DNA of 64,000 bases, taken from a virus. Where the stretch lies: the IMG/VR virus record IMGVR_UViG_3300031772_000003, positions 1 to 64,000 of that record. One strand, 5' to 3'. The notes under the pieces are model-generated. The model made no database searches. It was not told the origin of the DNA and saw only the letters and a list, made by a program, of their open reading frames with translations. Below, piece after piece: positions 21,311 through 41,116 of the stretch (position 1 is its first letter; each line of letters begins with the position of its first letter). Both the position numbers and the translations under genes were made by a program.

Positions 21311-21318
21311 CACGGGTC

Positions 21319-22745: not shown

Positions 22746-23879
22746 TTACGATTTCGGTGGCTCGCCCCACAAACGGTCCACCTCGGCTAGGATAGTGCAG
22801 GGGTTCAGATTCATGAGTCGAGCGCATCCACGCTCCGTGCATTTCACGGTATAGCCCCACGCGGGACGGCGCGAACACGGGCCCTCGCATACCACGTCCA
22901 TTCCCTCCAGGGCGGTACAGAGGGGGTAGGTGTGGATCGTCGCCACCGACGTGGGCCCGAACAATCCGATGCAGCGGGTCCGCGTCGCCGCTGCGAGATG
23001 GAGGATGGCGCTGTCGACGCATATCGCGCCCCAGCAGTTCGCTAGGACCCATGCCAGAGCGGGCAGGGCGAGCCCGATGACAGGCACGGCTCCATCAGGC
23101 ACGATAAAGTGGGGCTCCACGAGGTCGAGAACTAGGGGCCGGAGGCCACGCGCGAGGAGACCCTGGACCAAGTACTCCGCGTAGGGCCGTGGGTACGTCC
23201 GTTCCAAGGCTGAGGCTCTCAGCGCCACGGCGACCCACGGCTCACGCCCTCTTGAGCAGCCCAAGTGGGTTGAGACGGGCCCACTGTCCTCCCCGAACCT
23301 GAATCCCCATGAGGGGCAGGCGTGGCTCAAGCCCTTGGTCTTAGCGGCGGCGCAGAACAAACCGGCTCTGCCCCGATCGACCGCGGGCAGGGTACAAGCC
23401 AACTCGTAGGCTTCGCCTGGGCACCATAGGTCCACTATGGTCTTGGGCTCGCAACCCCGCAACGGCGCGAGGTAGGGGTAGCGCGTGGAATCAATGGGCC
23501 CGCCGCGCTCTCGCCGGCCCTGTGCCTTGATTTCTTTTACTGTACCGAGCCCGATGAAGTTCTCGACGCCGTAGAGGTGGCGATAGACTTCGGCGTAGTC
23601 CAATGGGGCGAAGACCGTCACGACGCACGCGGGGTCCTCGTGGCGGAGTTGCCGGGCCGCGGCCCCAACGCACAACGAATCGCCTATTGCCCCTCCGTCT
23701 CTGAGGAGACGGTGGAAGCGTCCACGATCAGCGGCGCACAATGGCTTGGGTCCCCCGTCTGCCAACCATACGGTTGTTTCTGGGCCGTGGGATCGGGGTA
23801 GATTCGAGCCAGTAACTCCGGGCCCACCTCGGACATGATCCATAGGGCCATGCGGACGTACCGCCACATCAGGGCGCAA
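22746..23879 (-). CDS. glycosyltransferase, GT9 (heptosyltransferase-like); start uncertain
   Basis: GAIGDSL, VDSAILHLAAA, IGLFGPT. Confidence 0.85.
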   Translation of the reverse strand: MRPDVAVRPHGPMDHVRGGPGVTGSNLPRSHGPETTVWLADGGPKPLCAADRGRFHRLLRDGGAIGDSLCVGAAARQLRHEDPACVVTVFAPLDYAEVYRHLYGVENFIGLGTVKEIKAQGRRERGGPIDSTRYPYLAPLRGCEPKTIVDLWCPGEAYELACTLPAVDRGRAGLFCAAAKTKGLSHACPSWGFRFGEDSGPVSTHLGCSRGREPWVAVALRASALERTYPRPYAEYLVQGLLARGLRPLVLDLVEPHFIVPDGAVPVIGLALPALAWVLANCWGAICVDSAILHLAAATRTRCIGLFGPTSVATIHTYPLCTALEGMDVVCEGPCSRRPAWGYTVKCTERGCARLMNLNPCTILAEVDRLWGEPPKS

Positions 23880-26125
23880 CCGGCGTCATAGGGCTGGGTC
23901 ATCGAGCCGTACTCCGCGAGAGAGGCATGACGGCACCCGCCGCCACAGGCCCACCTGGCCGCGCACTTCATGCATATCTCAGATCGATAGGATCGATTCT
24001 CGCACCACGGCAGACGAGCTACCTCATCGATCCCACCGCGGTCGAGATGGCCGATCTCTGAGGGGGTCTCACGATGGCAGTTATGTACGAAGACACCTGC
24101 TGCCAGAGCGAAATTATGGTACTTCTCTACTTCAAGACAGTACACATCCGCCCTACCGGCGGGGGCGACTGAAACAACCCGGTGGTTGGTCGGGGCAGTA
24201 ACATAGTGGTCCGTCTGGCGCTGGTGGTTCCCGCAGCAGCCCGCATTGGTAAACGCCCTACTACAAACGGGACAGGCAGTACTTTTGACCGCGTACCACC
24301 TAAGTCGGGCTAGATGCTCGCCACTGTGGAGATGGATGTACCGACCATTGGTGGGATCATGCGATGCCCTGCTTGTTGCTACTGCTAACCTACCCCTCCA
24401 TCGGGTCTTGTTCTTCTGAATCCCGGCGAGGGCGTAATTGATGTTCTCACGGTTGATGGGTTCCATCTTCTTACGGAAATCTTGGCTTTGCCATTGGTCT
24501 GCTATGCTGTACCCACCCTCATCTAGGTGTCGTTTTCTGTGTTCCGAGTGAGTTAGTGCATCCAAGTTGTCGGGGTCGTTGTTTCTACTATTCCCATCTT
24601 TGTGGTGGACAACCTTCCTTTTAGGGAGTGGGCCGTGGATGGCCTCCCAGACCATCTGGTGGGTTGATAACCGCGCCCCACCTGGGTGGTACAGGCTCTC
24701 ATAGAATGCTACATGACCGCCGTGGCTTTTATGCCTAGCTGTGAGACCTTTGTAGAGGGGCATCAGGGACGCACCCGAAGCTAGTTGGTCAGCCCTGCAA
24801 TACGTCCCATCTCGGAGCATGAAAGGATGGTCAGGGGTACAACGGACCACCTCTCGGTTGTCCAGTGTCACAGCAAGAAGTTCTTGGTCTTTGGCTACCA
24901 GGTGGGCCGTGGCTCTTCCTGGAACCACTTTGTCCCCATCATAAGAGTACACCCAAAGGGGCTTTGGGTGCGCCACTAGGTCAGCAATTGGCTGATCCAT
25001 TCCGTTGAGCAGGGACACCTTAGTGTCCCCCGCGAAGCAGGCAAAAATCTCGCCGTCAGGGGCCACACTAACTACCCCACTGCCTGCGCCGCACTCAGTT
25101 GGACTGTGCTGTGTCCACAATAGACGGGTCAGGAATACCTCCATGCCGTGCAGTCGGGGCCTCTTGCCCGCTCGCAGACGCTCCACGGCCCAGTCCGCCA
25201 CGGACATGTACTCCTCGTCCAAGCCCTCGATGTCTGCAGCAGTGAGGTTGAGAGCAGCCCGCTTGCGGTCGACGCACCGGGTCTCAGAGAGGCAGATCGG
25301 CTCCACGGAGACCCCCTGGGCATAGCCCTGGTCGCAGAGATCGTTGAGATGAGCCACCCGCTCCAGGACATGAGTGGAGCCGTTATAGAAGGTGGAGCGG
25401 AGCGTTATGGCACCGGCCCGTGCGGCCTTGAGCCCGTCCAATGCGGCCCTCACGAGCCCGTAGCTGCCGCTCCCGTTGATCATGGGGCGAGCCGCATCGT
25501 GGAGAGGCTGGGGGCCGTCCAGCGAGACAATGAGGCTGAAACCATGCTCAACAAGCCACCTTGCCTTTGCTTCACTAAGGAGGACCGCATTGGTGGTGAC
25601 GTGCAGAGAGGGCTTGAGCGGAGCGGCATAGCCCTCCACGAATATCGCCGCTTCCTTGAGCGTCTCCCATGCCATCAGAGGCTCGCCGCCGAAGAAGCTG
25701 ACATGGACACCCATGCCCTGGGGCATATGCCCACAGGGCCTGGCAAGGAGGCGTGTGATCGCGGCCTTGGCCGTGGTGATGGACATGACCTTGACCGGAG
25801 AGTCAGGATAGTCATGGGTGAAGCAGTAAAGGCAAGAAAGGCAGCAAGCGTGCGTTAGTTCCAGCACGACCATACCGGGCTGTCGGGCCGTGTAGGGATC
25901 GAACTGGGGCCGTTTGTCCAGTAGGGGCACCGCCTCCTCGGGTGTATCGGTTTGGAACACCGCCAGCGAGTTGGTGTCGAGGGCGAAGTGCCGGTCCCGG
26001 ACTTGGATGCGGGCCGCCTCGGGCTTGGCGTCGTACCACTTAGTCCTGTTAAGCTTGATCTCGGCGTTGAGCTTACGCAACAGGGGTCTCCTGACTTTCC
26101 CGTCCAATTCCAAGGGCCAGCCCAT
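23684..26125 (-). CDS. radical SAM/SPASM-domain maturase-like enzyme with an HNH intein
   Basis: CCLSCLYC, FFGGEPL, TTNAVLL, VSLDG; SPASM CGAG...C|H...CMKC...CGGGC...C. Confidence 0.92.
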   Translation of the reverse strand: MGWPLELDGKVRRPLLRKLNAEIKLNRTKWYDAKPEAARIQVRDRHFALDTNSLAVFQTDTPEEAVPLLDKRPQFDPYTARQPGMVVLELTHACCLSCLYCFTHDYPDSPVKVMSITTAKAAITRLLARPCGHMPQGMGVHVSFFGGEPLMAWETLKEAAIFVEGYAAPLKPSLHVTTNAVLLSEAKARWLVEHGFSLIVSLDGPQPLHDAARPMINGSGSYGLVRAALDGLKAARAGAITLRSTFYNGSTHVLERVAHLNDLCDQGYAQGVSVEPICLSETRCVDRKRAALNLTAADIEGLDEEYMSVADWAVERLRAGKRPRLHGMEVFLTRLLWTQHSPTECGAGSGVVSVAPDGEIFACFAGDTKVSLLNGMDQPIADLVAHPKPLWVYSYDGDKVVPGRATAHLVAKDQELLAVTLDNREVVRCTPDHPFMLRDGTYCRADQLASGASLMPLYKGLTARHKSHGGHVAFYESLYHPGGARLSTHQMVWEAIHGPLPKRKVVHHKDGNSRNNDPDNLDALTHSEHRKRHLDEGGYSIADQWQSQDFRKKMEPINRENINYALAGIQKNKTRWRGRLAVATSRASHDPTNGRYIHLHSGEHLARLRWYAVKSTACPVCSRAFTNAGCCGNHQRQTDHYVTAPTNHRVVSVAPAGRADVYCLEVEKYHNFALAAGVFVHNCHRETPSEIGHLDRGGIDEVARLPWCENRSYRSEICMKCAARWACGGGCRHASLAEYGSMTQPYDAGCALMWRYVRMALWIMSEVGPELLARIYPDPTAQKQPYGWQTGDPSHCAPLIVDASTVSSETEGQ
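24080..25039 (-). mobile_element. intein with HNH homing endonuclease (320 aa)
   Basis: CFAGDT start, CTPDH, VVHHKDGNSRNNDPDNL HNH, ends HNFALAAGVFVHN|C. Confidence 0.95.
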
Positions 26126-26495
26126 CGAGGCTGCGGGCAATCTTTGAGATGAGGTTTCCGGCGATTTGGGCGCAACGGCTCGCCTCTTCAGGGGTCGTGC
26201 ATTCGCCGTGAATGATGATCTGCCCGGAAACTGTGGCGGCCATGCTCGGATTGCCGCTCGCGGACGCCTCAAAGGTGTGCTTGGATGTGCTGCCTTGGCT
26301 GATGTAAAGGACTTCGTAGTCGGTCCCGTTCATTTGTCGTCCCCCTCGTTCTGCTTCTGCATCCCATTCTGGATGAGTCGGCCCAGAGGCCCCACGACCA
26401 ACTCGGTCCCGTCTACCAGTCTGGCGTAGTAGCCTGTATCCACCAGTGCGGTGGTGTTGTAGCCCAAGAGAACAAGTTCCTGTGGGGCGACGCCC

Positions 26496-27320
26496 CTACG
26501 GGGTTTTCTGTTCCTGTTTCTCATCCAATCCCCCTCGCATCGCTCGATAAACAACCTCTGGGGTAGTCATCTGAATCGGGTTTACCCGAGTGCAGTACTG
26601 AAAGTCCGCAGCATGAACTGGCGGAATCTCCGCCGCTTCGCGCCCGATGGCCTCCCCCAGTGATCTATAGTCGTAGCAGGGTAGGGGACACGCAGCATTG
26701 CACCTGTAAATCGTGAGCCCAGCGGCCCGGAGGTGGGGGGCCAACTCGGCCATTCGTACCCCGGTATCCGTGTAGAGCCTCTGGTTCCGCTCGACATCCT
26801 CGGCTTTCATTGGATTGCCGTGGGCATACTGCCGCTCCGCGCTGATCTCAAGATCGACTCCGACGAGGTAGAGCCTGCGGAAGCCGAGGCGGTACGCCAG
26901 TTGCAGCGCGACGAAGAATGTATTCTTCCAGTGGACGTACTCGGACCGGGGGGCCAGCAGGCCCGGTATGTCGAACGCGGGTGAGGTGTCGTAAAAGAGG
27001 GTGCTGGGGTGCTCGCACGAGCACTTGCCCATGATCACGTCCCGGTAGCACTTGATCGGGAGGCACTTCACGACACGGGGGTTGGCCAGGATGCCAGGGG
27101 GGAACCCTGCGGGGCTATCCAAGGTGACCCACCACTGCGGCCAGTCGTAGGTGGCAATGGCGGAGTTCACGGCTATGACGGGGAGGCGGGATACCCGGAG
27201 AGCGTCGAGGGGCTCGCGCTTGAGACTTGGACCGGGACAGACGAGGAACCCGGCCCCTGACTGGGTATCGTAGAGGTCCACGGGCTTGTATCTGCCGTCA
27301 GGCCAACACCGCCAGAGCAT
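26496..27320 (-). CDS. Maf/DUF115-like (glycosyltransferase-like) protein
   Basis: LVCPGPSL, IAVN, ALQLAYRLGFRRLYLVGVD. Confidence 0.7.
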   Translation of the reverse strand: MLWRCWPDGRYKPVDLYDTQSGAGFLVCPGPSLKREPLDALRVSRLPVIAVNSAIATYDWPQWWVTLDSPAGFPPGILANPRVVKCLPIKCYRDVIMGKCSCEHPSTLFYDTSPAFDIPGLLAPRSEYVHWKNTFFVALQLAYRLGFRRLYLVGVDLEISAERQYAHGNPMKAEDVERNQRLYTDTGVRMAELAPHLRAAGLTIYRCNAACPLPCYDYRSLGEAIGREAAEIPPVHAADFQYCTRVNPIQMTTPEVVYRAMRGGLDEKQEQKTP

Positions 27321-27360
27321 CGGGTTCCCTACCCGTGGGGATGGGTTACGGAAAGATAGT

Positions 27361-27391
27361 GTGGCCGGGCCGATACCCTCGACCCGGCCAC
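27361..27391 (-). terminator. strong GC hairpin after the tRNA-like element
   Basis: GTGGCCGGGTCGA-GGGTA-TCGGCCCGGCCAC; weak U tract. Confidence 0.5.
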
Positions 27392-27399
27392 GAGGTGCA

Positions 27400-27650
27400 T
27401 AAGGGGAGCGATGCTCCCACAGTACGCAGGGGGACGCGCTGATTCTCGCTGGGCTTGTAAGGTTGAGCTTGTGGCACCCACAGTCTTGCCGTTGGACGAC
27501 GCCCGCTGGGGCTTAGTTCTGGAGCGGGCAGCAGGAGTCGAACCTGCATTGTGAGCATTCGCAAGTGCCAGCATCTGCGTCCTCTGAGCCTTCTAGGCAG
27601 GCCCCTGACATCCAGCTTCAACCTACACCTGAGTCTGAAGCTAGCCTAGT
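27400..27650 (-). ncRNA. structured RNA with a circularly permuted tRNA-Gly-like domain
   Basis: 3' half (T-arm GCAGG-TTCGACT-CCTGC, TGCCCGC-T-CCA; 27556-27520) precedes the 5' half (GCGGGCG-TC-D arm-GTGGG; 27506-27477), joined by a 13-nt linker. Confidence 0.8.
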
Positions 27651-28400
27651 TCAGTTCCCCAGCGGAAGATCACCGAGCACATACTTGAAGATGCCTGCGG
27701 CGATCTTCTCGGTGGCATGGGTGGCCGCATTGGCGGCGGCAAGCGCGGTCTTGACGGCCTCGCGGAGTTTGTCCAGGCGACCGAGCATGCCTGACTTCTC
27801 GGCGTTGGAGATGGCACCCGACCAGATGCGCGTGGTGAACGTCCCGACCTGCACGTCCTCTGCCCAAGTGTTCACTTGGGCGGGGTGGTGATCGGTCGCG
27901 GGCACCACGACTTGGCTCTTGGGCACCTTCGCCGTGCGGTATTGCTCCACGGGCAGGGAGACCCGCACACCTGGGCCGATGTCGCTGGCGGTCCATGCTA
28001 CCTTGCTCTCGATAACGGGCGCGGCGGCGATGATCTCACGCAGTTCAGCGAGCCTCTTGTCGAGTTGCAGGAGTGCCGTTCCGGGTATATTCTCGATGCT
28101 GAGACCGTCGCAGTGGATGCCGGCTTTCGCCGTCGTGTTCGTCACATCGACTTGATAGCCCGCATCGATCAGTGGGCCTGCGGCTGCGATGAACTCAGCG
28201 ATGTCGCTGCCCACCGTTGCGGCCATTTCCTCACGCTGGTCGGGGAGCTTCTCCCCATCCTCTCGCATGGGCCTGTACGTTTTCTCGACGCCTCTGTAAC
28301 GGTGATCTTCTCCGAAGCGCCGCTTGACTACCTCGGCCGCGGTTTGTGCCGCACGCTTCCTCTCGGGAATCACTGCCAACACCTCGTGCAACTGACCCAT
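27651..28400 (-). CDS. conserved coiled-coil protein (DUF7873-like, from memory)
   Basis: QLHEVLAV, G.EKTYRP..EDGEKLP, ALLQLDKRL, RTAKVP, ATDHHPAQV...EDVQVG...WSGA; AGGAG RBS. Confidence 0.75.
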   Translation of the reverse strand: MGQLHEVLAVIPERKRAAQTAAEVVKRRFGEDHRYRGVEKTYRPMREDGEKLPDQREEMAATVGSDIAEFIAAAGPLIDAGYQVDVTNTTAKAGIHCDGLSIENIPGTALLQLDKRLAELREIIAAAPVIESKVAWTASDIGPGVRVSLPVEQYRTAKVPKSQVVVPATDHHPAQVNTWAEDVQVGTFTTRIWSGAISNAEKSGMLGRLDKLREAVKTALAAANAATHATEKIAAGIFKYVLGDLPLGN

Positions 28401-28500
28401 CACTTCGCTCCTGCTAACCGGTTTGCCTGACACTGGTGGGGGGCGTCACGAGCACCCACGCCATTACCATAGTCGTTTGGAGCAAGCACCAGAGCACAAA

Positions 28501-28773
28501 CTACTCCTCATCAGCCTCTTCGTCTTGGTCGTTGTCTTCCTGAAGAAAGTCGAGATGATTCTCAATCTCCTGCCACCACGCCGAGAAGACCCGCTCGAAA
28601 TCATCCCGAAGGTCGACGTCGACCTTGCCATCATTGTCGATCTCATCCCCGATGTCGATGGCACTGGGGACTGTGATCCGAACCCCGCTGACCACCACCT
28701 CCTTATCATCGAGGAGTTGGAGGAACTGGCAGGGGCTCAACTCGATGTCCTTGATCTTGTCCTTTGGGGTCAT
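28501..28773 (-). CDS. small acidic hypothetical protein
   Basis: D/E-rich; AGGAG upstream. Confidence 0.65.
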   Translation of the reverse strand: MTPKDKIKDIELSPCQFLQLLDDKEVVVSGVRITVPSAIDIGDEIDNDGKVDVDLRDDFERVFSAWWQEIENHLDFLQEDNDQDEEADEE

Positions 28774-28776
28774 CTA

Positions 28777-29706
28777 TCATTCTCCTTTGCCTGCTGCGGT
28801 TCGGAGCGCACTGAGCCGTGACAGCAAATCCTCGGATCGCGGGGCGCGCCAGCCAATGGCCCCTGCACCCCCTGTCCGCACATTGTTCAGAGACCAGTCG
28901 TCACCATCCGCGCCATTATTGAGTACGAACCAGATGTAGTCGGGGCCAACAACCCACCAGGAACCTCCACCATAGATGGTCTGCGTGTCAAACCACCTCT
29001 CCCCTTCTGGGGAGTTACTACCCTCTGGCCTCTCGCCACGCTCCCTAACTTCTTGCTCCAGGGCTCGAAGCGTCGTGGATCGTACCGTGGCGGCATCCCT
29101 ACGCTGCCGCTGAGCGTCCTCCTGTGCTCTTAGGGGAGTCATCTCGTCCTCAGTTGCAGCCCTCGCGGTGGCCCAGTAGGCGTAGCCACTTTGGTCCCCA
29201 ACCCCAAAACTCATCCCGTCCTCCCTGTAGTAACGCTGGCCGGTAGTGACGACGGTGACATACTCCGGCCCAGTATCATCGTAGGCACTACGTAGTAAGA
29301 AACACTTCTTGCAGTACGGCTTAGGTTGGATGCCGGGCCGTTTGCCCATTTCGCTTGGTTCAGTCATCCCCCACTCATGTTCGCCCTTCTTGCATGGGCG
29401 TCGATCGGGGTTGCGCACGGTTTGGCCGACATCCCAACCTGCGTCCCCATAGCCGCTGCCCCCACTCAACCTATACGGGCCCTCTACTGTGGCAGATTGG
29501 GGCTGAGCTCGGGGGGCCACTGAGGAGGGCGCGGGTTCGACTTGGGGTTCGGGGCAGCGGATATGGCTGGCCCGCTTGCCCGGCTCCCAGTTGATCTTGT
29601 CGCCGATGTTGATGTCGCCACCACAGCGGGGGCATCGCCCAGGGTATCGTGCGGACATCTCCCGCTCCAGCAGCCTGTCCACTGCCTTTTTGGTCAAATC
29701 GTCCAT
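28777..29706 (-). CDS. Zn-ribbon protein with MDDLTKKAVDRLLE leader
   Basis: ARYPGRCPRCG..I..GDKI.W...H..C domain; paralogous N-terminus with 29840..30544. Confidence 0.75.
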   Translation of the reverse strand: MDDLTKKAVDRLLEREMSARYPGRCPRCGGDINIGDKINWEPGKRASHIRCPEPQVEPAPSSVAPRAQPQSATVEGPYRLSGGSGYGDAGWDVGQTVRNPDRRPCKKGEHEWGMTEPSEMGKRPGIQPKPYCKKCFLLRSAYDDTGPEYVTVVTTGQRYYREDGMSFGVGDQSGYAYWATARAATEDEMTPLRAQEDAQRQRRDAATVRSTTLRALEQEVRERGERPEGSNSPEGERWFDTQTIYGGGSWWVVGPDYIWFVLNNGADGDDWSLNNVRTGGAGAIGWRAPRSEDLLSRLSALRTAAGKGE

Positions 29707-30618
29707 CGCCTGCTCCTAGAAAGCCCCCACAGCGAGCAACGGTGGCCCGCAGGGGCGTCCGTGGGCCTCAAGTGGACCTCGTCCTTGATCTTGTCCTTCT
29801 TCGTCACGGGTACTCTCCTTTTTTTTGCCACGGGGGGTATTAGAATGCGATCAGCCGCGAGATTGCCCTGTTCCCGCACAGGATACGCGAGCCTGATTCA
29901 TCGTAGGCCCCCCACCCCTGCCTGATCGTCAGGGGAAGCGTTCCTGGTTTCGCACCGGCGACATGGGCGCAGAGTGGCTCCGCTTCATCGTCCACAAACC
30001 AACCCGGGTTCCCACCCATCCAGCCTCGCGCCTCCCAGCGCTTCCGGCAGCGGACACAGCGGACCGTGAATCGATCACTCGGCAAAGGGCGCGCGATCCG
30101 GGCGATGTCCTCGATGGCGGCCCCCAGGTAGACCCAGGAGTCACACTGGGCCCAATCCTCGTCCTGGTGGTGGCCACCTACAATGGCCTCACCCGAGCGC
30201 AGGATGGTCAACTCCTCCCACCCCCCGCTTGCGAGCATGGTCGCCAGGACATCCTGTGGGTTATCCAGGTCAACCTGCTTCCGCACCGTGGGTTGCGGGA
30301 AAACGGGCCGCGAGGCGGTTGAGGTCCGAGGCTCCTCAGCCTCGCCGGGCTCAGCCGAGTCGTCCACGTCCGGCTCGTCCGGTGGGTCGCAGCATGCAGC
30401 GTGCCTGGCCTTCTGTCCAGGTTCCCAGACAATAGCGTCTCCAACCTCGATGTAGTCGCCACACTCGGGGCAGCGACTGGCGTACTTTGCCTGCATGCGG
30501 CGTTCGAGGAGCCTGCCCACTGCCTTTTTGGTCAAATCGTCCATCGCCTGCTCCTAGAAAGCCCCCACAGCGAGCAACGGTGGCCCGCAGGGGCGTCCGT
30601 GGGCCTCAAGTGGACCTC
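29679..30618. repeat. 102-bp perfect direct repeat (29679-29780 and 30517-30618)
   Basis: Identical 5' leader and first codons of two paralogous genes. Confidence 0.95.
29840..30544 (-). CDS. Zn-ribbon protein with MDDLTKKAVGRLLE leader
   Basis: AKYASRCPECG..I..GD.I.W...H..C; second CVRC. Confidence 0.75.
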   Translation of the reverse strand: MDDLTKKAVGRLLERRMQAKYASRCPECGDYIEVGDAIVWEPGQKARHAACCDPPDEPDVDDSAEPGEAEEPRTSTASRPVFPQPTVRKQVDLDNPQDVLATMLASGGWEELTILRSGEAIVGGHHQDEDWAQCDSWVYLGAAIEDIARIARPLPSDRFTVRCVRCRKRWEARGWMGGNPGWFVDDEAEPLCAHVAGAKPGTLPLTIRQGWGAYDESGSRILCGNRAISRLIAF

Positions 30619-30657
30619 TGCTACCTCACGGGGGCCGCGAGGCCCGTGTACGGCCTT

Positions 30658-30686
30658 AGTATAGCACACCAGCCTGTGGGGGTCAA
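30658..30686 (-). promoter_or_regulatory. sigma70-type promoter
   Basis: TTGACC-17 nt-TATACT with extended TG(n), intergenic. Confidence 0.75.
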
Positions 30687-30687
30687 G

Positions 30688-31350
30688 CTACTTGTCCTGT
30701 TTCTCAGACTCCTTGACCCCATCCCTCCCGGCAGCCGTGAGGGGAGGCAGGTACTTGATGAGCAGCTTGAAGGTCACAGGCTCGTCAGCCTTGACTCGTG
30801 ACGGTTTGGTAATACAGAGGCAGTACTTGCCGGGGCCTCTGTCAATCTTGGTCACGGTGACTTGGCCTCTCACCTCGTAGCTCACCACGCCCGCCATGGC
30901 GGGAGGCTGGGGGAGGGTCTTTGAGCGAAAGTCGCCATCATCCTTCCATGCGGGCTCGTCTGGTATGCCGTTGAGCGTGATGTCCACGATGGGATGTCCC
31001 GACCTACGCCATTCCATCCCTGAACGGGACAAGTGCAATTCGACGTGATCTCCGCGCAGGGTCGCCACGATCAACAAGCTCTTGGCTTCCCTCTTGGGGG
31101 CTATGGTGCGGTACTGCTTCGTCACGGCGAGGCGGGACTCGATGTCCGCGATGAGAGCCTTGTCGTCCTGGACCTTCGCCTTGGTCAGGAGCGACTCCAG
31201 CCCGTTGGCATAGTCCCGGTCCAACTCCCGGAGTTGGCCCGGGAGAGGGAGTTCCGCGGGTACTCCTGCTGGCTGGGCCCGCAGGGCAGAAATGAGTCCC
31301 AGTAGGATAGTGAGGCACAGCAGTTTACGCATCTCATTCCCCTTCGCCAT
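30688..31350 (-). CDS. putative exported protein
   Basis: Signal-peptide-like MRKLLCLTILLGLISALRA. Confidence 0.65.
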   Translation of the reverse strand: MAKGNEMRKLLCLTILLGLISALRAQPAGVPAELPLPGQLRELDRDYANGLESLLTKAKVQDDKALIADIESRLAVTKQYRTIAPKREAKSLLIVATLRGDHVELHLSRSGMEWRRSGHPIVDITLNGIPDEPAWKDDGDFRSKTLPQPPAMAGVVSYEVRGQVTVTKIDRGPGKYCLCITKPSRVKADEPVTFKLLIKYLPPLTAAGRDGVKESEKQDK

Positions 31351-31363
31351 AGTATTCTCTCCT

Positions 31364-31380
31364 CCCACCCCTAGAATCAA
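31364..31380 (-). promoter_or_regulatory. conserved upstream motif, copy 7
   Basis: TTGATTCTAGGGGTGGG; its TGA is the stop codon of the radical SAM gene. Confidence 0.75.
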
Positions 31381-32180
31381 GTCGGGCCGTATCTGGTTAG
31401 GGCCGGTGGGCCGGTGGCCTCAAACTTAGCCAAGGCTCGCTCCCATGAGGGAGAGACTTGTGGATGTGCCAGGCTCTGTATCGCAGGCTCAATCCCATTG
31501 TATACCCCGCAGAGTGGGCAAGCCTCCTGTAGGATAGCTTCCAGATGCTCTGGGGTCACTTGCCGCAGCACTTTGACCCCCCAGTCTCCGCCGAATACCC
31601 TATCAATTGCGGCGGCTGGGGCACAGGGATAGAAGCCTGCGTAGTTGAGCCCGAAACCGCACTTCCCGGAGGCATAGCAGCCGCGACAATGATGTTTAGT
31701 TGGCCATGATGGTCTGTCACACGGGGCCAATGTAACCGCAAAGTGCTGTTCGGTGGGGCCGTTGATCTTTTGCGTATTCCGAACACCTACACTGGGGCAC
31801 TGTTCCCTTAGCCACTCAATCTCCTGTTCCACCTTCTGGCCCACCCCGCGCGTCACGACCAGTATGTCAACATGATCGGGTGACCGGGCTTGGTAGGCTA
31901 CTGTTTCTGCAACGATGGCATGGAGTTGTGGGTGGAGCGTCGGTTCCCCTCCCATGAGAGCTATTCGCTGCCACAAGTGTCCGGACTGCTCGGACTCGTG
32001 CAGAGCATACTTTAGCTGCTCCACATCCATATCGGCCTCATGGCCAGCCCGCGCAAGTCCTGTGATGCGGTTGCAGTCGACGCAGTTATGTCCACACACA
32101 TAGGTAATATCGATCTCAAGGCGGTGGGGGTTAAGCCAAGCCTGCGTAGAGTATGGAATCATTGTAAGACTCCCAACCAC
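31377..32180 (-). CDS. radical SAM protein
   Basis: CGHNCVDC, MGGEPTLHP, C-terminal Cys cluster (CG...YPC...CPLCG). Confidence 0.88.
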   Translation of the reverse strand: MVGSLTMIPYSTQAWLNPHRLEIDITYVCGHNCVDCNRITGLARAGHEADMDVEQLKYALHESEQSGHLWQRIALMGGEPTLHPQLHAIVAETVAYQARSPDHVDILVVTRGVGQKVEQEIEWLREQCPSVGVRNTQKINGPTEQHFAVTLAPCDRPSWPTKHHCRGCYASGKCGFGLNYAGFYPCAPAAAIDRVFGGDWGVKVLRQVTPEHLEAILQEACPLCGVYNGIEPAIQSLAHPQVSPSWERALAKFEATGPPALTRYGPT

Positions 32181-33220
32181 GCGGTCCGAAACACATCCAA
32201 TCCCATCTCCCGCATCGCTTTAGCTCTGGCAGCCTGCCCCATGGCTACACGCTCCTTTGGGTTATCCCGCAGCCACTTGAGCCTATCTATGAATTGCTGT
32301 CGGTCACCATATGGTACGAGGAAGCCCGTTATCCCGTCCTCGACTTGCTCCACGTTGCCTCCGCGGGCCTCAGAGACCACGGGGATGGCCGCGGCCATCA
32401 TCTCAGCTATCGCCAGGGAATAACCCTCCACGAAATGCTCTGCATTCCTGTAAATCGCGCAGTCCATCTGCTGTAAATAGCCAAACCTGGCCGTGATCGA
32501 TGGGGGTACGAAGGAGACCTTGCCTAGAAGCCCCCTGGCCCTGAACTGTTCTTTGGGGGTATCTCCCACAATGATCCCCCGAGTGGCCGTTGATATGACA
32601 GACTCGAATATCTCTGCGAGGTCACTGGGGTACTTCTCGGGCAGATCACTGCCGTAACGTCCAATGACGCATGACCCGAGCCGTGCAGGATCATCCTGGG
32701 CAAGCTTAGTGGCTGTGATTGAGCCCACATCGACACAGCCATGTATGAGCGTTGCTTTGTCCCGAAGGGGGGGCGGGAGGGTCTGCAGTCCCGCAGCACA
32801 GACACAAACATGGTTGTGCATGCCAGCTACCCAACCCGGCCTGGGGTTGTGGTAAACCGCTGTGTACTTGGGCCCAGGAGTAGAAAGCCTTGATGGGATA
32901 CGGCTCAAGTCGTTCCACGCATGGTTGACTACGGCATCGGGCCGAAGACTCGCCACATGAGCACAGACACAGTGGTCCCTGGCTTGGTACACCTTAGCTC
33001 CTGCTTGAAGCAGGGCTTGGCGCATGGTCTCATCGGTCCAGTTGCTGTCGATGATGATATGGTGGTCCCACTCATAGAGTGCCCTTACCATGTGGGCGAC
33101 GTAACTCTCGGCTCCACCGATGACTAGGAATTGAAGGTAATGGAGGCAGATACCACCGGTTCCCCGTTGAGTGGAGCGCTCCCGCCACGATTCATCCCAT
33201 TGGGGCCAGGGGGCATTCAC
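32159..33220 (-). CDS. glycosyltransferase, GT4 family
   Basis: GGAESY; EGYSLAIAEMMAAAIPVV...GGNVEQVEDGITGFLV. Confidence 0.92.
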   Translation of the reverse strand: MNAPWPQWDESWRERSTQRGTGGICLHYLQFLVIGGAESYVAHMVRALYEWDHHIIIDSNWTDETMRQALLQAGAKVYQARDHCVCAHVASLRPDAVVNHAWNDLSRIPSRLSTPGPKYTAVYHNPRPGWVAGMHNHVCVCAAGLQTLPPPLRDKATLIHGCVDVGSITATKLAQDDPARLGSCVIGRYGSDLPEKYPSDLAEIFESVISTATRGIIVGDTPKEQFRARGLLGKVSFVPPSITARFGYLQQMDCAIYRNAEHFVEGYSLAIAEMMAAAIPVVSEARGGNVEQVEDGITGFLVPYGDRQQFIDRLKWLRDNPKERVAMGQAARAKAMREMGLDVFRTAWLGVLQ

Positions 33221-35395
33221 CTACCATCTCCTCGCAGTCTCGGCATACCAACTCCCCATTTCCACATCCAAGACAAAATCGAAATACTTGAGGTACTGTG
33301 GGATCACGGCGTCGATGGAGTAGAGCCTGATGGCCCGCTCTCGTATGTAGATGGGGTCAAGCTCGGGGACATGGAGGAGGGCGTAACTGAACTCCGACAT
33401 GGTACGGCACCGGAAACCGGTCTTGCCGGGCTCGACTACCTCACTGAAGCTCCCCCAGTCTGTGGATATTACCGGCACCCCTGCCATTTGGCTCTCCGCA
33501 GCCACGAGACAGAACGGTTCCTGGTAGATTGATGGGGTGAAAACAGCGATGGCATTTGCGATCACCTTAGCTTTTTCTGCCCCTACGAGCCCATCATGGT
33601 ATGCCCTAAGCTTAACTTTGTGCTTGTCACAGACCTGTTGGGCAATGTACTCGCCTTTATCGACGTTGTTGCGCCCAATGAACAGGGCGTAATCCCCGGT
33701 TTTGTGTTCCGCTGGTGGGTAGTCACTGGGATCGAGGAAGTGGGGAATCACGGTGTCGAACCACTTGTAGCGCTCCGTTCGTCCGGGGTCTGTGGCATAA
33801 AGGATGGTCTGCTGGGCATAGCTTGGAAAGACCTTGTACGTGGCCCAGACCGAGGGGTAACCGGCCAGCACCTCGATGATAGGTGGCATGGCATAGGAGT
33901 GGACCCCTGCATGGGCCCAACCGTAAGTGGACGCCGCGATCTGCCGCCAGTTTTGGGCGTGGCTTACACCCATTGCGAACGCCGCGGAAAGCCGCTTGGT
34001 GTACTCCTCATGCCATTCATTGTTCCATGCCCATGTGCTTGCTGTTGGCAATCCGAGGCTCACGAATTGCCCCCCCTCCGGCACTTTAGATCCCTCAATG
34101 CCGTAGTAGGAGTAGGGAACGTGGGCGCGGGAGAGGAGGCGGCAGAACAGGGCGGCGCAAGCAAGTTGGGCGTCACTGGGGGCCGCCAGGATGTCCAGTG
34201 GAAGCGTAGGGTGCCCAAAAACATGGACGGATAGTGGAGGGGTTGCGGTTAGATGTGTAGTTACGGATATGCTACCCGAGATTTCACTTCTGCCTCCTTG
34301 CTGGTACGCAATGGGGGGTTGGGTTGCATATTTCTCTACTCCCACAAGCCTGCACAAACAAGCATCGTTGATGGCTCTGGGCTGGGCCTCCTCCCATTCC
34401 CGCAGCACGGCCTCGTATGCTCCCTGGAACACGATGTAGGCAATACCACCCATAAAGCCCTGCCCCTTGATGAGATGGGTGGAATACTGCTGCTGATTGC
34501 CGCGATTGAAACCACCGAGGTAAAGCAGACCAGCCGTTGCTGGGGCCTCTGCGAGGGCCTGGGGGATTACGGCCACGGCCTCTGGGGTGAAAGCCGCGTC
34601 GTCCTCCAACACCAGGACCGCGGGGTATCCTCGGCGCTGAGCTTCACGGACGACCCCGATGTGGGAGAGCAAACAACCGTACATCCCAGCCCTGGTTGCT
34701 CCACCCTGCCGGGGTGGATCGAAGCCAGAGGGTACATCGGCATCCTCGATGATGATGCCTGGGAAGCGCTCCAAGGTGAGGAGCGGCCCTACGGTATCTC
34801 GAACCCTGGCTAGGAAGGAATCTTTACGGTCGGGGCTGCGAGCAAGATTGATGTAGAACGCTGGTAGGGGACATCGGACCCCACACTTCGGCAGCTTCCC
34901 ATGAGGATAAAGCCAGATGAGCGAATTGCGGCGCTCAAACTGCAGGCCAGTCTCGGTGACGGTCTTTATAACCCCCACGAACCCTAAGATGTAATCATGG
35001 AATACAGCAACGCCACCGGGGGCCACAAGCGCCGTCCACCTCTCGTAGTCGGCTTTGCAGGCAGCATAGTGGTGGTCGGCATCGATGAGAAGGAGGGCAA
35101 TCGGCCCTGTGGGAAGCGGAACTTCCTGAGTCTTGCCGCAAAGTGCTTGGATATTGTGGTAGGGGGCCGTGGTGTCTTGGAACTCCATGAGTTGGTTGGG
35201 TCTCTCTATATTATCAAATGTGTCCACTGCGATGATGATGCGCTCAGGGGCGGTCTGGGCCAGCATGACCGTGGTTCGCCCAAGGAAGCAACCCAACTCC
35301 ACGATGCACCCTGGGATGTCCTTTACCCCCTCCACGAGTTGGAGAAGTTGCTCGATCTCATCGGGGGCCAAGCTCCACATCACGTCATCTGCCAC
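33221..35395 (-). CDS. trifunctional SAM-methyltransferase + GT25-like + GT4 glycosyltransferase
   Basis: VELGCFLGRT/IDADH/FHDY (MTase); YINLARSPDR/GCLLSH/VLEDDA (GT25); EPFCLVAAESQMAGVPVI (GT4). Confidence 0.9.
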   Translation of the reverse strand: MADDVMWSLAPDEIEQLLQLVEGVKDIPGCIVELGCFLGRTTVMLAQTAPERIIIAVDTFDNIERPNQLMEFQDTTAPYHNIQALCGKTQEVPLPTGPIALLLIDADHHYAACKADYERWTALVAPGGVAVFHDYILGFVGVIKTVTETGLQFERRNSLIWLYPHGKLPKCGVRCPLPAFYINLARSPDRKDSFLARVRDTVGPLLTLERFPGIIIEDADVPSGFDPPRQGGATRAGMYGCLLSHIGVVREAQRRGYPAVLVLEDDAAFTPEAVAVIPQALAEAPATAGLLYLGGFNRGNQQQYSTHLIKGQGFMGGIAYIVFQGAYEAVLREWEEAQPRAINDACLCRLVGVEKYATQPPIAYQQGGRSEISGSISVTTHLTATPPLSVHVFGHPTLPLDILAAPSDAQLACAALFCRLLSRAHVPYSYYGIEGSKVPEGGQFVSLGLPTASTWAWNNEWHEEYTKRLSAAFAMGVSHAQNWRQIAASTYGWAHAGVHSYAMPPIIEVLAGYPSVWATYKVFPSYAQQTILYATDPGRTERYKWFDTVIPHFLDPSDYPPAEHKTGDYALFIGRNNVDKGEYIAQQVCDKHKVKLRAYHDGLVGAEKAKVIANAIAVFTPSIYQEPFCLVAAESQMAGVPVISTDWGSFSEVVEPGKTGFRCRTMSEFSYALLHVPELDPIYIRERAIRLYSIDAVIPQYLKYFDFVLDVEMGSWYAETARRW

Positions 35396-35433
35396 GACAT
35401 GTCTCCTCTACATTCCCTCTAACAGTCGTTGCC

Positions 35434-37053
35434 TCACTTGGCACCATGTTCTCGGAACGAAGCCCAAAAGTCCAAGTAACGCTGGGCCTCTTTGGGTGTG
35501 TATTCTACAAACCTGCCCTCTGCTCCCAAACGGACGCCGCAGAGAAGAACAAGTAGGGCTGGCCGGCTTGCGGCTGCGCCCCACGCGAGAGTGATCTCGC
35601 CTCCACGGACTTCACACCCTGGGATTCCGTCACACCACTCCGTAGGCTGGACACTCACGACTCGGATCGTCCCAGGCACACATGCTTCTACGAAGAGAGG
35701 GTCAATGGCTGCCCGCACCGAACCGCTCGGGACCGTCATGACCTCCATGAACCGCGACTCCGGCATCTCCATAGGGGTCAAAGCGCGCAACCGCCCACCG
35801 AGCCGCATTACATAAGGACCCTTATCACCCTTTGGACCACTAGGCCCGGATGGGCCGGATGGACCGGAGGGTCCGCTAGGACCCGAGGGTCCTGACAAAC
35901 CGGAGGGTCCGCTGGGACCCGATGGGCCGGATGGACCGGAGGGTCCGCTAGGACCCGAGGGTCCTGACAAACCGGAGGGTCCGCTAGGACCCGAGGGTCC
36001 TGACAAACCGGAGGGTCCGCTAGGACCCGAAGGCCCGGATGGACCCTCGGGTCCTGACAAACCGGAGGGTCCGCTAGGACCCTCCGGCCCGGCTGGGCCG
36101 GATGGGCCGGGTGGCCCAACCTGCTTCCCTACCGCCTCGCAGCTTATTTGGCATGTCTGCGCTTGGCAGGCCCATACTTGGCATGCGTTCTCACAGGCAA
36201 AAGTGCATGATGCGGCTTGGCATGCGGCTTCGCACACGGCTTGGCATCGGATGATGCACTGGGTCTGGCACGTCTGCTCCACTATGGTCTGACAGACCAA
36301 CTGGCAGAATGCACCCTCGCAACCCAACTGACAGTATCCCTGGCAGTTGGCTTGGCATGCAGTAATACAATCGATGGTCACGGCTAGGGTAGTGAGGATT
36401 GGCCCATGTGTGTCGGTGAAGCTGCCCGAGACAGAACTGCCCAACAGCGTCTCGGTCGGGACCGGGATCGTCGTCGGCAACTCGCTAAGCCACTGCCAGC
36501 ACCGCAGAATGACGTGGATGGGCCGGACCGATTCGATGGCCGTGACTTTTTCCCTGGCATCGGCGACGGGCAGGTACGCGGGGAGGCCCGCGACCATCCT
36601 GTAAAGATCGAAACGGGCGGCGCGCAGTGTATGGGCGTAGTCCAGAGTGCGGGAGTAGTCCCCATCCTCGTGGAGCGTAGTCTTGTAGAGTTCCCATGCC
36701 TTGATGCGGTCGTTGAGGCTCCACAAGAACGTCTTGTCCCAGGAGGGGTGCGTCCCCTTGATCTTGTAGAAGTAGGTCACGTTCTTGAGGAACCAGCGGC
36801 GGAAATCCTCCGCCTTCTCACTACCTGTGAGGGCTCCGATGAGGTAGGAGAGGTAGAGGATGTACTTGGCATCGCAGTAGTCGGGGTCGAAACACTTGAG
36901 CAGGAGTTGGCCGATCTCTGTGTTTGTAGTCTCAAACTCGGTCTGGATCGCGTCGAGGACGCGCTCCAGGTTGCCGGTTTCCCCAAAGCCGCCAGCCGCA
37001 AATTTGTCTCTGGCACGGATCACTTCAGGCAAAAGGCGATATAGACTAACCAC
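35434..37053 (-). CDS. baseplate/tail protein (gpI-like N-domain) + CxxxC array + collagen-like segment
   Basis: [24 protein letters not shown] domain; 18 Cys in 77 aa; GPS/GLS triplets. Confidence 0.8.
35815..36117. repeat. collagen-like Gly-X-Y coding repeats (Ser-rich)
   Basis: About 33 consecutive G-X-Y triplets, mostly GPS. Confidence 0.95.
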
Positions 37054-37071
37054 GACTCTGTACCCCTACAG

Positions 37072-38022
37072 TTACGGAAATACGGGCGTGGTTTGGGTCA
37101 TTTTTTGACATGTGAGTTGACACGATTGGTTACACGTAGAAGTGCAGGACGCTTCGCACCCAGTCATACACCCCCCGGGGGCTCCGGTGCATGCGATTTG
37201 GCACGATACGGTGCAAGCACCCGTGGTGCAGGAGATCATGCAATAATTCGTGCAATTCCCCTGACATGAACACTGACAGAACCCCACGCAGGTCGTCGTG
37301 ATCTCCAAGCCACGGGCCCCACAAGCATCGGGGAACACGGGATCGAACCAGATACCGGCGTCGTTGGGGCTGGTGGCCGTGTCCACGAACGAGCCGCTCA
37401 CGCTCTGTATATCCAGGGGATCGCCGGCGTAATCCGTGTCCGAGGGGACGGGCACCGTAGTCGTAGGGACCTCCGTGGTTCCACCAGGCTTCCGGATGAG
37501 GACGTGGATGGGCCTGAAGGGCTCGGCCACGCCTCCAACGTCCACGCCCTGGTCCCCAGTGGTCATGCTGGGGGTACGGACATCGACCCTGGCCGCCTTT
37601 ATGGTGTGGGCGTAATCGGTGTAGAGCGAGTAGTCGCTCTCCTCATGCAGCTTGGTCTTCCAGAGTTCCCAGGGGAAGTGGTTGATGAAGCCGTGGCACC
37701 TGAGCATCGCCTCCCAGGACGGGCGAGTGGCCTTGATGTGCCACAACAACCCGATAGTCTTGAGGAAGACTCGGCGCTTCGCCGTGGACCAAGTCTTGCT
37801 CGTGCCGAGCCCGAGCAGCTGGCCCATCAAGGCAATGTAGGTGGGGTCAACGGTATCAGGGTCGCGTAAGGTCTTAAGATCCGTGATCTCGGTGGTTGTG
37901 GCTTCTAGTTCCTGCTCCAGCGACTCCACGATCTTCTGGAGTGTACCGATGCTCTCCCCACCCCGCGCCGCGGCGTCGTAGGTCCTCACGACCTCGGGCA
38001 GGAGCCGGTAGAGACCTAACAC
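37072..38022 (-). CDS. baseplate/tail protein (gpI-like paralog) with C-terminal CxxxC array
   Basis: [25 protein letters not shown]; 16 Cys in the final ~70 aa. Confidence 0.8.
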   Translation of the reverse strand: MLGLYRLLPEVVRTYDAAARGGESIGTLQKIVESLEQELEATTTEITDLKTLRDPDTVDPTYIALMGQLLGLGTSKTWSTAKRRVFLKTIGLLWHIKATRPSWEAMLRCHGFINHFPWELWKTKLHEESDYSLYTDYAHTIKAARVDVRTPSMTTGDQGVDVGGVAEPFRPIHVLIRKPGGTTEVPTTTVPVPSDTDYAGDPLDIQSVSGSFVDTATSPNDAGIWFDPVFPDACGARGLEITTTCVGFCQCSCQGNCTNYCMISCTTGACTVSCQIACTGAPGGCMTGCEASCTSTCNQSCQLTCQKMTQTTPVFP

Positions 38023-41114: not shown

Positions 41115-41116
41115 AA

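Follow-up and report, generated by a model that had tools for sequence, protein, structure and literature searches.

Cysteine arrays on two phage baseplate proteins as probable substrates of a linked radical SAM/SPASM enzyme

Radical SAM/SPASM enzymes have been described together with cysteine-rich substrates in several systems. QhpD (TIGR03906) links Cys to Asp or Glu in QhpC, a subunit of quinohemoprotein amine dehydrogenase that is retained in the larger assembly. Among the ranthipeptides (NF047865), PapB acts on PapA, the freyrasin precursor with six tandem CxxxD motifs, and links Cys to Asp or Glu at i+1 to i+7 (PMC12373016). The SCIFF peptide, about 45 aa long with six Cys, is paired with the maturase ScfB/CteB (TIGR03973/TIGR03974; structures 5WGG and 5WHY). 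A CXXX-repeat system defined in silico (TIGR04114/TIGR04115) joins tandem CXXX repeats to a dedicated maturase, and we found no characterisation of it in the literature. In cnidarian minicollagens, which belong to a tough extracellular structure, a CxxxC-type Cys-rich module is found directly beside a short collagen triple helix; there, disulfides are reshuffled without a dedicated enzyme of the radical SAM kind.

The phage locus described here likewise has tandem short Cys motifs and a radical SAM/SPASM enzyme, with the motifs on virion proteins. It was analysed in a window of 64,000 nucleotides (positions 1 to 64,000 of IMG/VR record IMGVR_UViG_3300031772_000003) from a phage genome of 164 kb, and the arrays, enzymes and neighbouring genes of the locus all lie on the minus strand. 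The sequencing run that contains this DNA is labelled as a sediment metagenome, the sole clue to its habitat.

Cysteine arrays on two gpI-like baseplate proteins

The array genes and their baseplate context are as follows.
35434..37053, minus strand: gpI-like paralogue, 539 aa, with baseplate anchor domain, Cys array, collagen-like (GPS)n stalk and C-terminal globular domain
35815..36117, minus strand: collagen-like Gly-Pro-Ser repeat, residues 313-413 of the 539-aa protein
36139..36369, minus strand: Cys array 2, 18 Cys, residues 229-305 of the 539-aa protein, abutting the collagen stretch N-terminally
37072..38022, minus strand: gpI-like baseplate protein, 316 aa, with N-terminal Tail_P2_I-like domain and C-terminal Cys array
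37108..37290, minus strand: Cys array 1, 16 Cys, residues 245-305 of the 316-aa protein
38032..40686, minus strand: baseplate J protein with an HNH-type intein at 39910-40533
40686..41857, minus strand: baseplate W/gp25 (40686-41114) and spike gpV (41117-41857)

A preliminary description had placed arrays of 18 and 16 Cys on two adjacent paralogous baseplate proteins, and its coordinates proved exact. Each protein contains 12 CxxxC pairs; its shuffled controls (2000 per protein) average about 1 and never exceed 4-5. The two proteins are paralogues that share 38% identity and an N-terminal gpI-like domain. The window proteins scored below the cut-offs of both TIGR02242 (51.9 bits) and PF09684 (20.6 bits), the 316-aa protein with 22 and 13.5 bits. 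Its homologues pass PF09684 (L008, 27.8 bits; P0002-P0004 carry the domain), and its gene comes after the V, W/gp25 and J baseplate genes, which is the synteny of gpI. The 539-aa protein matched Collagen (E 1.2e-14) and tail fibre PHROGs, from which it is predicted to be a fibre fused to its own baseplate anchor.

The Cys spacings of array 2 are 4,4,4,4,5,4,8,4,4,4,4,5,4,4,5,5,4. At the DNA level the Cys arrays are hardly periodic, and the adjoining collagen stretch is built of tandem repeats of 36/72 bp. Most Cys of the window arrays are followed by Gln; among 506 four-residue units of the clade, Q takes this place in 40%, with E in 39% and T in 9%, and positions +2 and +3 are rich in Ser and Thr, giving a repeat unit of C-[Q/E/T]-x-x(-x). 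When the whole genome was searched with the TIGR04114 CXXX-repeat model, array 1 gave the sole match (37108-37161), at 8.7 bits against a 20-bit cut-off, and neither protein had an NCBIfam match to the SCIFF precursor model at E <= 0.1.

The radical SAM/SPASM enzyme and its neighbours

The enzyme gene runs from an ATG at 26125 to a stop at 23684, about 10 kb downstream of the array genes, with about 9 kb of other genes in between.
21319..22143, minus strand: GT2-like protein (weak Pfam match), kept downstream of GT9 in relatives
22746..23741, minus strand: GT9-family glycosyltransferase, 331 aa (PF01075, E 2.7e-9; probable start TTG 23741, longest ORF start 23879)
23684..24079, minus strand: radical SAM/SPASM enzyme C-extein, with CX2CX5CX3C and the final Cys
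24080..25039, minus strand: HNH-type intein, residues 363-682, ahead of a conserved SPASM Cys (Intein_splicing, E 2.6e-14; HNH_3, E 2.2e-15)
25040..26125, minus strand: radical SAM/SPASM enzyme N-extein, residues 1-362 (cluster motif CX3CX2C, residues 94-101; first Cys of the SPASM motif, C345)
26496..27320, minus strand: MptE-like or sialyltransferase-like protein (phrog_4603, E 4e-10; weak PF01973 and WaaZ matches)
31377..32180, minus strand: small radical SAM protein, 267 aa, with CX3CX2C (Radical_SAM, E 2.6e-5)
32159..33220, minus strand: GT1/GT4 glycosyltransferase
33221..35395, minus strand: methyltransferase, GT25 and GT1/GT4 fusion protein, between the array genes and the enzyme

Both radical SAM genes named in the preliminary description were recovered with their cluster motifs. 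In the SPASM enzyme, C94, C98 and C101 are present and invariant across alignment A2. The seven-Cys SPASM domain is complete only when the intein is conceptually removed, reading C345-x12-G-x4-C683, then CMKCAARWACGGGC, then the final Cys. The junctions are GEIFA|C...VHN|CHRE: the intein starts with CFAGDTK, which supplies Cys1, and its end reads VHN|C, with the C-terminal His-Asn and the +1 Cys; the site of insertion in the enzyme is conserved. The joined exteins match the family consensus GxIFACHR, and the C-extein shares 38-47% identity with the C-termini of intein-free relatives.

The best NCBIfam matches of the window enzyme were QhpD (1.2e-47), nif11-type (5e-44), SCIFF maturase (2e-41) and PapB (2e-36), and the enzymes adjoining arrays in other lineages returned the same set. 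All scores lie below the equivalog cut-offs: 163/453 bits for QhpD (TIGR03906), 142/425 for the SCIFF maturase (TIGR03974) and 126/340 for PapB (NF047865). This shortfall arises in part because the intein splits the HMM match; intein-free relatives fall below the cut-off too (for example L009, 199 vs 340 bits). In the HMM search proposed in the preliminary description, the SCIFF maturase was thus among the enzyme's sub-cut-off matches, and the SCIFF and CXXX-repeat precursor models stayed below threshold on the arrays. An AlphaFold model of the N-extein (pLDDT 76.8) had CteB (5WHY/5WGG) as its best structural match, with a Foldseek E of 4e-16 and a Z of 23.0 over 287 aligned residues at rmsd 6.4 (model residues 34-362), followed by anSME structures at Z about 20.9. 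No PqqD-family Pfam match indicating an RRE was found in the window enzyme at E <= 0.01. Ahead of the barrel, the model has one helix and four short strands, and residues 34-85 align with the N-terminal domain of CteB, the phage domain being shorter. By HMM profile and predicted fold, the enzyme groups with the Cys-thioether-forming peptide and protein maturases, apart from the non-peptide radical SAM families with which it might have clustered.

The neighbourhood is rich in glycosyltransferase genes. GT9 stands after the enzyme in L001, L009-L012 and L016 (L017 stops short of the site) and is fused to the enzyme in L013, L018/L242 and G005; by these comparisons it is the enzyme's conserved partner. 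This partner did not figure in the preliminary description. The GT2-like protein was recovered by tblastn at 28-36% identity in L002, L009, L010, L012 and L016. No homologue of the methyltransferase/GT25/GT1-GT4 fusion was found in the related loci, and it belongs to a phage-specific insertion that separates the arrays from the enzyme. The second radical SAM protein has no SPASM match and no counterpart in the related loci; it falls in an Atlas cluster of viral radical SAM proteins that has GT47 fusions among its structural neighbours, and it probably serves the glycosylation branch rather than being another cross-linker.

Arrays and enzyme occur together across phage loci

In the closest relatives (L001-L003) the gene order is baseplate J, gpI-Cys, gpI-Cys paralogue, radical SAM/SPASM enzyme and GT9, with the enzyme immediately behind the arrays. 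Arrays or mini-arrays were found in 12 of 13 IMG/VR loci with gpI-like homologues, and a single protein has as many as 108 Cys; in L013 there are mini-arrays only, in the gpI paralogue. The enzyme (33-40% identity) was present in all eight gpI-homologue loci with sufficient downstream DNA, and GT9 in all seven that reach beyond the enzyme gene. Synteny conserved inside a single phage clade partly reflects shared ancestry.

A homology-free DNA scan with the pattern (C[EQ]xx)x5 gave at least 17 genuine array loci (16 records) among the matches listed, and the C-[E/Q]-x-x arrays were on unrelated carriers, among them a tail protein and a Hoc-like Ig protein. In fifteen of these 17 loci the record also holds a radical SAM/SPASM gene, which almost always adjoins the array; in the remaining two, the contig ends at the array gene. 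Hence, among the matches listed, no genuine array was in a record shown to be without the enzyme. In-locus radical SAM/SPASM matches among the listed loci numbered 9/17 for genuine arrays vs 0/102 for artefacts (910 kb), with a Fisher p of 5e-9 computed on 9/18 vs 0/101. In the reverse test, which started from 80 viral loci with homologues of the enzyme, at least 59 proved to have a Cys array within 8 kb. For the 12 closest homologues the array was present in 11, and the twelfth has no upstream DNA. Similarity to the window enzyme correlated with the E/Q richness of the arrays (Spearman 0.51, uncorrected for relatedness). In one viral array locus, L120, the enzyme is a true member of TIGR04115, clearing the 350-bit cut-off with 486 bits. 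The co-occurrence that the preliminary description proposed to test thus held both in the gpI clade and on unrelated carriers.

A putative thioether ladder and its alternatives

Because the pairing of array and enzyme recurs adjacently in many unrelated phages, the virion proteins are probably stapled by the enzyme. We consider it likely, on comparative sequence grounds, that the radical SAM/SPASM enzyme encoded by the phage takes the arrays as substrates and ladders them with thioethers. Intein splicing would restore the Cys of the auxiliary cluster, and with it the enzyme. In a reaction like that of QhpD, CteB or PapB, an auxiliary [4Fe-4S] cluster would hold the Cys thiol while the 5'-deoxyadenosyl radical takes a hydrogen off a side-chain carbon of a nearby acceptor, and the thioether would then form. 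Each C-[Q/E/T]-x-x(-x) unit would offer one thiol donor and one candidate acceptor, at i+1 or in a neighbouring unit. The product may be a row of small rings, that is, a covalently laddered, redox-insensitive segment, with the baseplate anchor on one side and, on the other, the distal part of the protein, which in the 539-aa protein is the collagen-like fibre. GT9, the constant and sometimes fused companion of the maturase in the clade, probably adds sugar to the array proteins. As had been noted before, the surroundings of the enzyme contain no credible stand-alone ORF for a small Cys-rich precursor, which counts for this reading. The proposal that a domain of structural proteins is the thioether substrate, with stapling of baseplate or fibre, is supported by these comparisons, while the usefulness of thioethers in an anoxic cytoplasm is speculation. 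We found no publication on enzyme-linked Cys ladders of phage tail proteins.

Some observations weigh against thioether formation. The window arrays are dominated by Gln after Cys, whereas PapB accepts solely acidic acceptors, and therefore a different acceptor specificity must be assumed. In addition, no equivalog cut-off is reached by the enzyme, the SCIFF and CXXX precursor models remain below threshold, and in this phage some 9 kb of other genes stand between arrays and enzyme. The enzyme might modify the arrays to a different product, such as formylglycine formed from Cys as by anSME, another radical modification, or Cys, Ser or Thr primed for glycosylation by GT9. The rank of anSME as second-best structural match, the conserved and sometimes fused GT9, and the Ser and Thr at +2 and +3 would fit such a product. 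Yet every one of the top HMM and structural matches forms Cys thioethers, the model for the sulfatase maturase scores far lower on the window enzyme (70 bits vs 126-163), and direct reading of the arrays found no anSME target motif (C/S-x-P/A-x-R), which makes a product other than the ladder unlikely.

Slightly more doubtful still is that the arrays are structural alone, as metal-thiolate or disulfide knots comparable to the CxxxC helices found in copper storage proteins or to the Cys-rich domains at the flanks of cnidarian minicollagens, and that the enzyme targets, for example, a sugar or a host protein. One array does abut a collagen-like helix, as in minicollagens, and glycosyltransferases fill the neighbourhood. 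However, this leaves unexplained why the enzyme lies beside arrays on many unrelated carriers and is absent from control loci, and why 79% of Cys are followed by E or Q; a mean of 4.16 residues per Cys would keep 18 Cys off a single helix face, and the enzyme's relatives are all peptide or protein maturases. Cleavage and release of the arrays as free ranthipeptide-like products, with the tail-protein domain as a giant leader, would suit the array at the extreme C-terminus of the 316-aa protein and a composition like that of SCIFF and CXXX-repeat peptides, but is highly improbable given that in the 539-aa protein and many relatives conserved structural domains stand on both sides of the array, and that the conserved module has no protease or exporter gene.

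The thioether-ladder reading can be set beside the known systems. For the phage enzymes adjoining arrays, PapB ranks first or close to first among the HMM matches. Unlike PapA, a leader-bearing small peptide, the phage substrate would be a domain of 316- and 539-aa virion proteins, with C-[Q/E/T]-x-x as its unit and as many as 18 Cys in this phage and over 100 in relatives; the enzyme scores below the PapB equivalog cut-off and its acceptor would often be Gln or Thr. CteB is the top structural match, with an alignment that reaches into its longer N-terminal domain, and CQxSCQxxC-like sequence occurs in both SCIFF and the phage arrays, whereas the phage carriers far exceed the SCIFF peptide in length. 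QhpD is the best HMM match of the window enzyme, but QhpC is non-viral and has three bridges in one small subunit, with no repeat ladder. The likeness of minicollagens to the array and collagen stretch is an analogy only. The CXXX-repeat system shares both tandem repeats and a radical SAM/SPASM maturase; with the window enzyme at 40.8/350 bits and the best repeat at 8.7/20 bits, the phage system is a sister arrangement to it rather than a member.

Cysteine arrays on two baseplate proteins

The viral record is 163.7 kb long, with the window as its first 64 kb, a completeness of 92% (CheckV) and a G+C content of ~62%, and the sequencing run containing it bears the label "sediment metagenome". 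The region of interest is a late operon on the minus strand, in which gpV, W/gp25, J and two gpI-like paralogues follow in order.

Features of the baseplate operon
41117-41857, minus strand: spike gpV
40686-41114, minus strand: baseplate W/gp25
38032-40686, minus strand: baseplate J, with an HNH-type intein inside at 39910-40533
37072-38022, minus strand: gpI-like protein of 316 aa, with the Cys array forming its C-terminus
35434-37053, minus strand: gpI-like paralogue of 539 aa, with the Cys array, then a collagen-like stretch, then a C-terminal globular domain
35815-36117, minus strand: collagen-like (Gly-Pro-Ser)n stretch of the 539-aa protein

An N-terminal gpI-like domain is common to both paralogues (38% identity), and each continues from it into a Cys array. 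Because array, collagen-like stretch and globular domain follow one another behind the gpI-like domain, the 539-aa protein is a fibre fused to its own baseplate anchor. The preliminary description had counted 18 Cys in the array of the 539-aa protein (36139-36369) and 16 in that of the 316-aa protein (37108-37290), and both counts and coordinates proved exact. The Cys spacing is nearly always 4 and now and then 5, and each protein contains 12 CxxxC pairs, versus ~1 (at most 4-5) in 2000 shuffles. Unlike the DNA of the collagen stretch, that of the arrays is hardly periodic, indicating that the arrays are maintained as protein features. In the gpI clade (506 four-residue units) the residue after Cys is Q in 40%, E in 39% and T in 9%, and in the window arrays Q in 43%, T in 17% and E in 13%; the remaining two positions of the unit hold variable, small residues. 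Isolated array segments gave no Pfam or NCBIfam match. For the 316-aa protein, AlphaFold working from an alignment of 14 sequences gave a low-quality model (mean pLDDT 43.6), with the array region at 25-47 and nominally helical. As a separate observation, a 739-aa protein of record IMGVR_UViG_3300037067_011134 (loci L037/L150) carries 151 Cys, followed mostly by Thr and not E/Q (CTSGCTDGC...), and the radical SAM/SPASM enzyme beside it is 32% identical to that of the window.

The radical SAM/SPASM enzyme and its glycosyltransferase partner

The ORF at 23684-26125 on the minus strand encodes a radical SAM/SPASM protein, split by an HNH-type intein (24080-25039) directly before the second SPASM Cys. 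Conceptual joining of the exteins gave GEIFA-CHRE, matching the family consensus GxIFACHR, and C-x12-G-x4-C, then CX2CX5CX3C, with the final Cys regained. The top NCBIfam matches were QhpD (1.2e-47), nif11-type maturase (4.8e-44), SCIFF maturase (1.9e-41) and PapB (1.8e-36), all short of their curated cut-offs, to which the splitting of the match by the intein contributes. All four form Cys thioether cross-links. When the N-extein was modelled with AlphaFold (pLDDT 76.8), the nearest structure was the SCIFF maturase CteB (Foldseek E 4e-16, Z 23.0, residues 34-362), followed by the sulfatase maturase anSME (Z ~20.9). The 85-residue N-terminal extension of the enzyme aligns to part of the CteB N-terminal domain, yet is shorter, and is without a PqqD-type Pfam match. 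The best HMM and structural matches thus agree with the earlier placement of the enzyme among thioether-forming maturases, though the HMM matches all lie under cut-off. Homologues in GenBank phages were only distant (≤32% identity) and came from uncultured gut phages, so that no cultured phage model was identified there.

Inteins recur in this genome, with at least four of HNH type: those in baseplate J and the enzyme, and two outside the window (~155.7-157.8 kb of the same phage's record). In the relatives L001 and L017 they occupy different sites of the same genes; the L001 enzyme, of the L001-L003 group, has a LAGLIDADG intein within the CX3CX2C motif, and L001 baseplate J has two inteins. 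In some of the phage enzymes the C-terminus is a short tail rich in Cys (L001 12891-15290; L016 13508-15025; L012 15589-17127), e.g. SCGCQMSCQTEQ.

A gene for a GT9-family glycosyltransferase (22746-23741) probably starts with TTG at 23741 and shares ~58 nt with the 3' end of the enzyme gene. Three other phages (L013, L018/L242, G005) have the enzyme fused to GT9 in a single ORF of 778-881 aa. Against sequences of solved structures, the only match to GT9 was a marginal one, to a heptosyltransferase (E 0.78). The conservation of GT9 beside the enzyme, at times as a fusion, implies that the same array proteins would also be glycosylated, as a second step. The second radical SAM gene of the preliminary description was found again at 31377-32180; it has only the CX3CX2C motif and matches no SPASM model. 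The end of a GT1 gene runs into it, and related loci lack it. The small protein that it encodes falls into a cluster of mostly viral members, among whose structural neighbours are fusions of radical SAM with GT47, and we place it, with low confidence, in a glycan branch of a phage-specific insertion.

Several other genes of the region were recorded. Inside the phage-specific insertion, 28777-29706 and 29840-30544 encode a paralogous pair with a common N-terminal zinc-ribbon-like segment (phrog_1581). The MptE-like or sialyltransferase-like protein at 26496-27320 has a 29%-identical paralogue at 138135-138842 of the full record, and homologues near the enzyme in L013 and L018. Downstream of GT2, and in relatives too, the conserved module ends with small phrog_5417-type proteins (20477-21382; L002 9747-10665), which in the window phage are duplicated inside one 301-aa ORF.

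Linkage of arrays and enzyme across viral loci

The enzyme had been described as lying ~10 kb downstream of the array genes; the separation is ~9 kb. The intervening stretch, which holds glycosyltransferases, the small radical SAM gene, a DUF7873 protein and others, is not present in relatives, and the closest relatives on long contigs (L001-L003) place the enzyme right after the arrays, in the order baseplate J, gpI-Cys (361 aa, 23 Cys), gpI-Cys paralogue (593 aa, 39 Cys), rSAM/SPASM and GT9. As a single query the 316-aa protein gave no match in viral_contigs or GenBank phages; an alignment query was required, and with it 13 loci with gpI-like homologues were obtained from IMG/VR. C-[E/Q]-x-x arrays or mini-arrays were present in 12 of the 13, with up to 108 Cys per protein (L013: mini-arrays only, in the paralogue). 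The enzyme was found in all eight loci with sufficient downstream DNA (33-40% identity), and GT9 in 7/7 reaching beyond the enzyme gene; L017 ends before there. Most metagenome contigs are too short to be informative. For the relative lacking long arrays (L004/L234), which is on a 123-kb contig, the absence of array and enzyme together was seen in partial loci (L004, L244).

Independently of homology, the viral collection was scanned for DNA able to encode (C-[E/Q]-x-x)x5-C, which yielded at least 119 loci. Among the matches listed, 102 of 119 were out-of-frame readings of 12-bp tandem repeats; these were discarded and reused as a control, and none of the 102 (910 kb) had an enzyme homologue. 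Genuine non-repetitive arrays within long ORFs occurred in at least 17 loci (16 records), on otherwise unrelated carriers, among them a tail protein, a Hoc-like protein with an Ig domain and several large family-less proteins. Nine genuine array loci among the matches listed had the enzyme within the short fetched locus (Fisher p = 5e-9, calculated on 9/18 vs 0/101), and whole-record searches found it for the others listed except L097/L007 and G003, whose contigs both stop at the array gene; G003 was rejected as a counter-example for this reason. G001, G004 and G006, where the first protein search gave an absent or weak enzyme, were likewise rejected, since a more divergent rSAM/SPASM gene immediately abuts the array gene; the two genes are also neighbours in G002 and G005. 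The expected co-occurrence therefore holds on unrelated carriers, with no genuine array among the matches listed in a record shown to be without the enzyme.

In the reverse direction, at least 59 of 80 viral loci with enzyme homologues have a Cys array within 8 kb, a lower bound because true arrays of L148 and L192 were lost to the filters. Arrays accompany 11 of the 12 closest enzyme homologues, and the twelfth is without upstream sequence. Enzymes next to arrays in other lineages likewise belong to the PapB/SCIFF/QhpD/nif11 group, and that of L120 is a true member of TIGR04115, the in-silico CXXX-repeat maturase family. Similarity to the window enzyme tracks array E/Q richness (Spearman 0.51, relatedness ignored), and more distant enzymes accompany Ser/Gly-rich arrays. 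The arrays may be purely structural, forming metal or disulfide knots in the manner of minicollagen Cys-rich domains, but this leaves unexplained why arrays on unrelated carriers almost always neighbour an enzyme of this class, and why E/Q is preferred after Cys.

Proposed thioether ladder and comparison with known systems

The acceptor is Asp/Glu for QhpD, Thr for CteB and Asn in an NxxC motif for NxxcB. PapB joins a Cys thiol to the carbon beside the carboxylate of Asp/Glu at i+1 to i+7 (PMC12373016). Each repeat unit of the arrays provides a thiol as candidate donor and a Glu, Gln or Thr as candidate acceptor, so that the repeat fits the needs of a processive thioether former. We infer that such an enzyme would lay a ladder of small thioether rings along the array, which would become a non-reducible, protease-resistant link from baseplate anchor to fibre. 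The same array substrate may instead undergo other chemistry, formylglycine-type or tied to glycosylation. Since many arrays are internal, they are unlikely to be released as free peptides. We give roughly even chances to the full thioether reading, in which virion structural proteins are genuine ranthipeptide-type radical SAM substrates in many phage lineages, with tens to >100 thioether bridges per chain, plus partnered or fused GT9 glycosylation in this clade, making a covalently laddered, redox-proof baseplate-fibre junction.

Radical SAM thioether chemistry is known so far from small secreted peptides and one enzyme subunit (QhpC). If true, our reading would add an enzymatic cross-linking chemistry so far described in no virus and no structural protein, give RiPP enzymes a new biological role in stapling large virus-particle proteins, and amount to a new means to stabilise extracellular assemblies made in a reducing cytoplasm. 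Our full-text literature search found no paper in which radical SAM enzymes modify phage structural proteins, nor any on these arrays, in keeping with the preliminary description, which knew of no such case; the phage radical SAM maturase named in a recent cyanophage paper is listed there only under antibiotic synthesis (PMC12801897). The reading could account for the commonness of radical SAM/SPASM genes in uncultured phages, often annotated as auxiliary or antibiotic-synthesis genes, and with their very long, leader-less repeat substrates the phage enzymes could serve as tools for putting non-reducible cross-links into proteins. Among defined systems, the CXXX-repeat family, itself uncharacterised, comes closest. 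Of the family models suggested at the outset, that of the SCIFF maturase is among the best matches of the window enzyme, and the CXXX-repeat cut-offs are failed by enzyme and arrays alike. The proposed chemistry and the enzyme class are known; the substrate type and the biological setting would be new.
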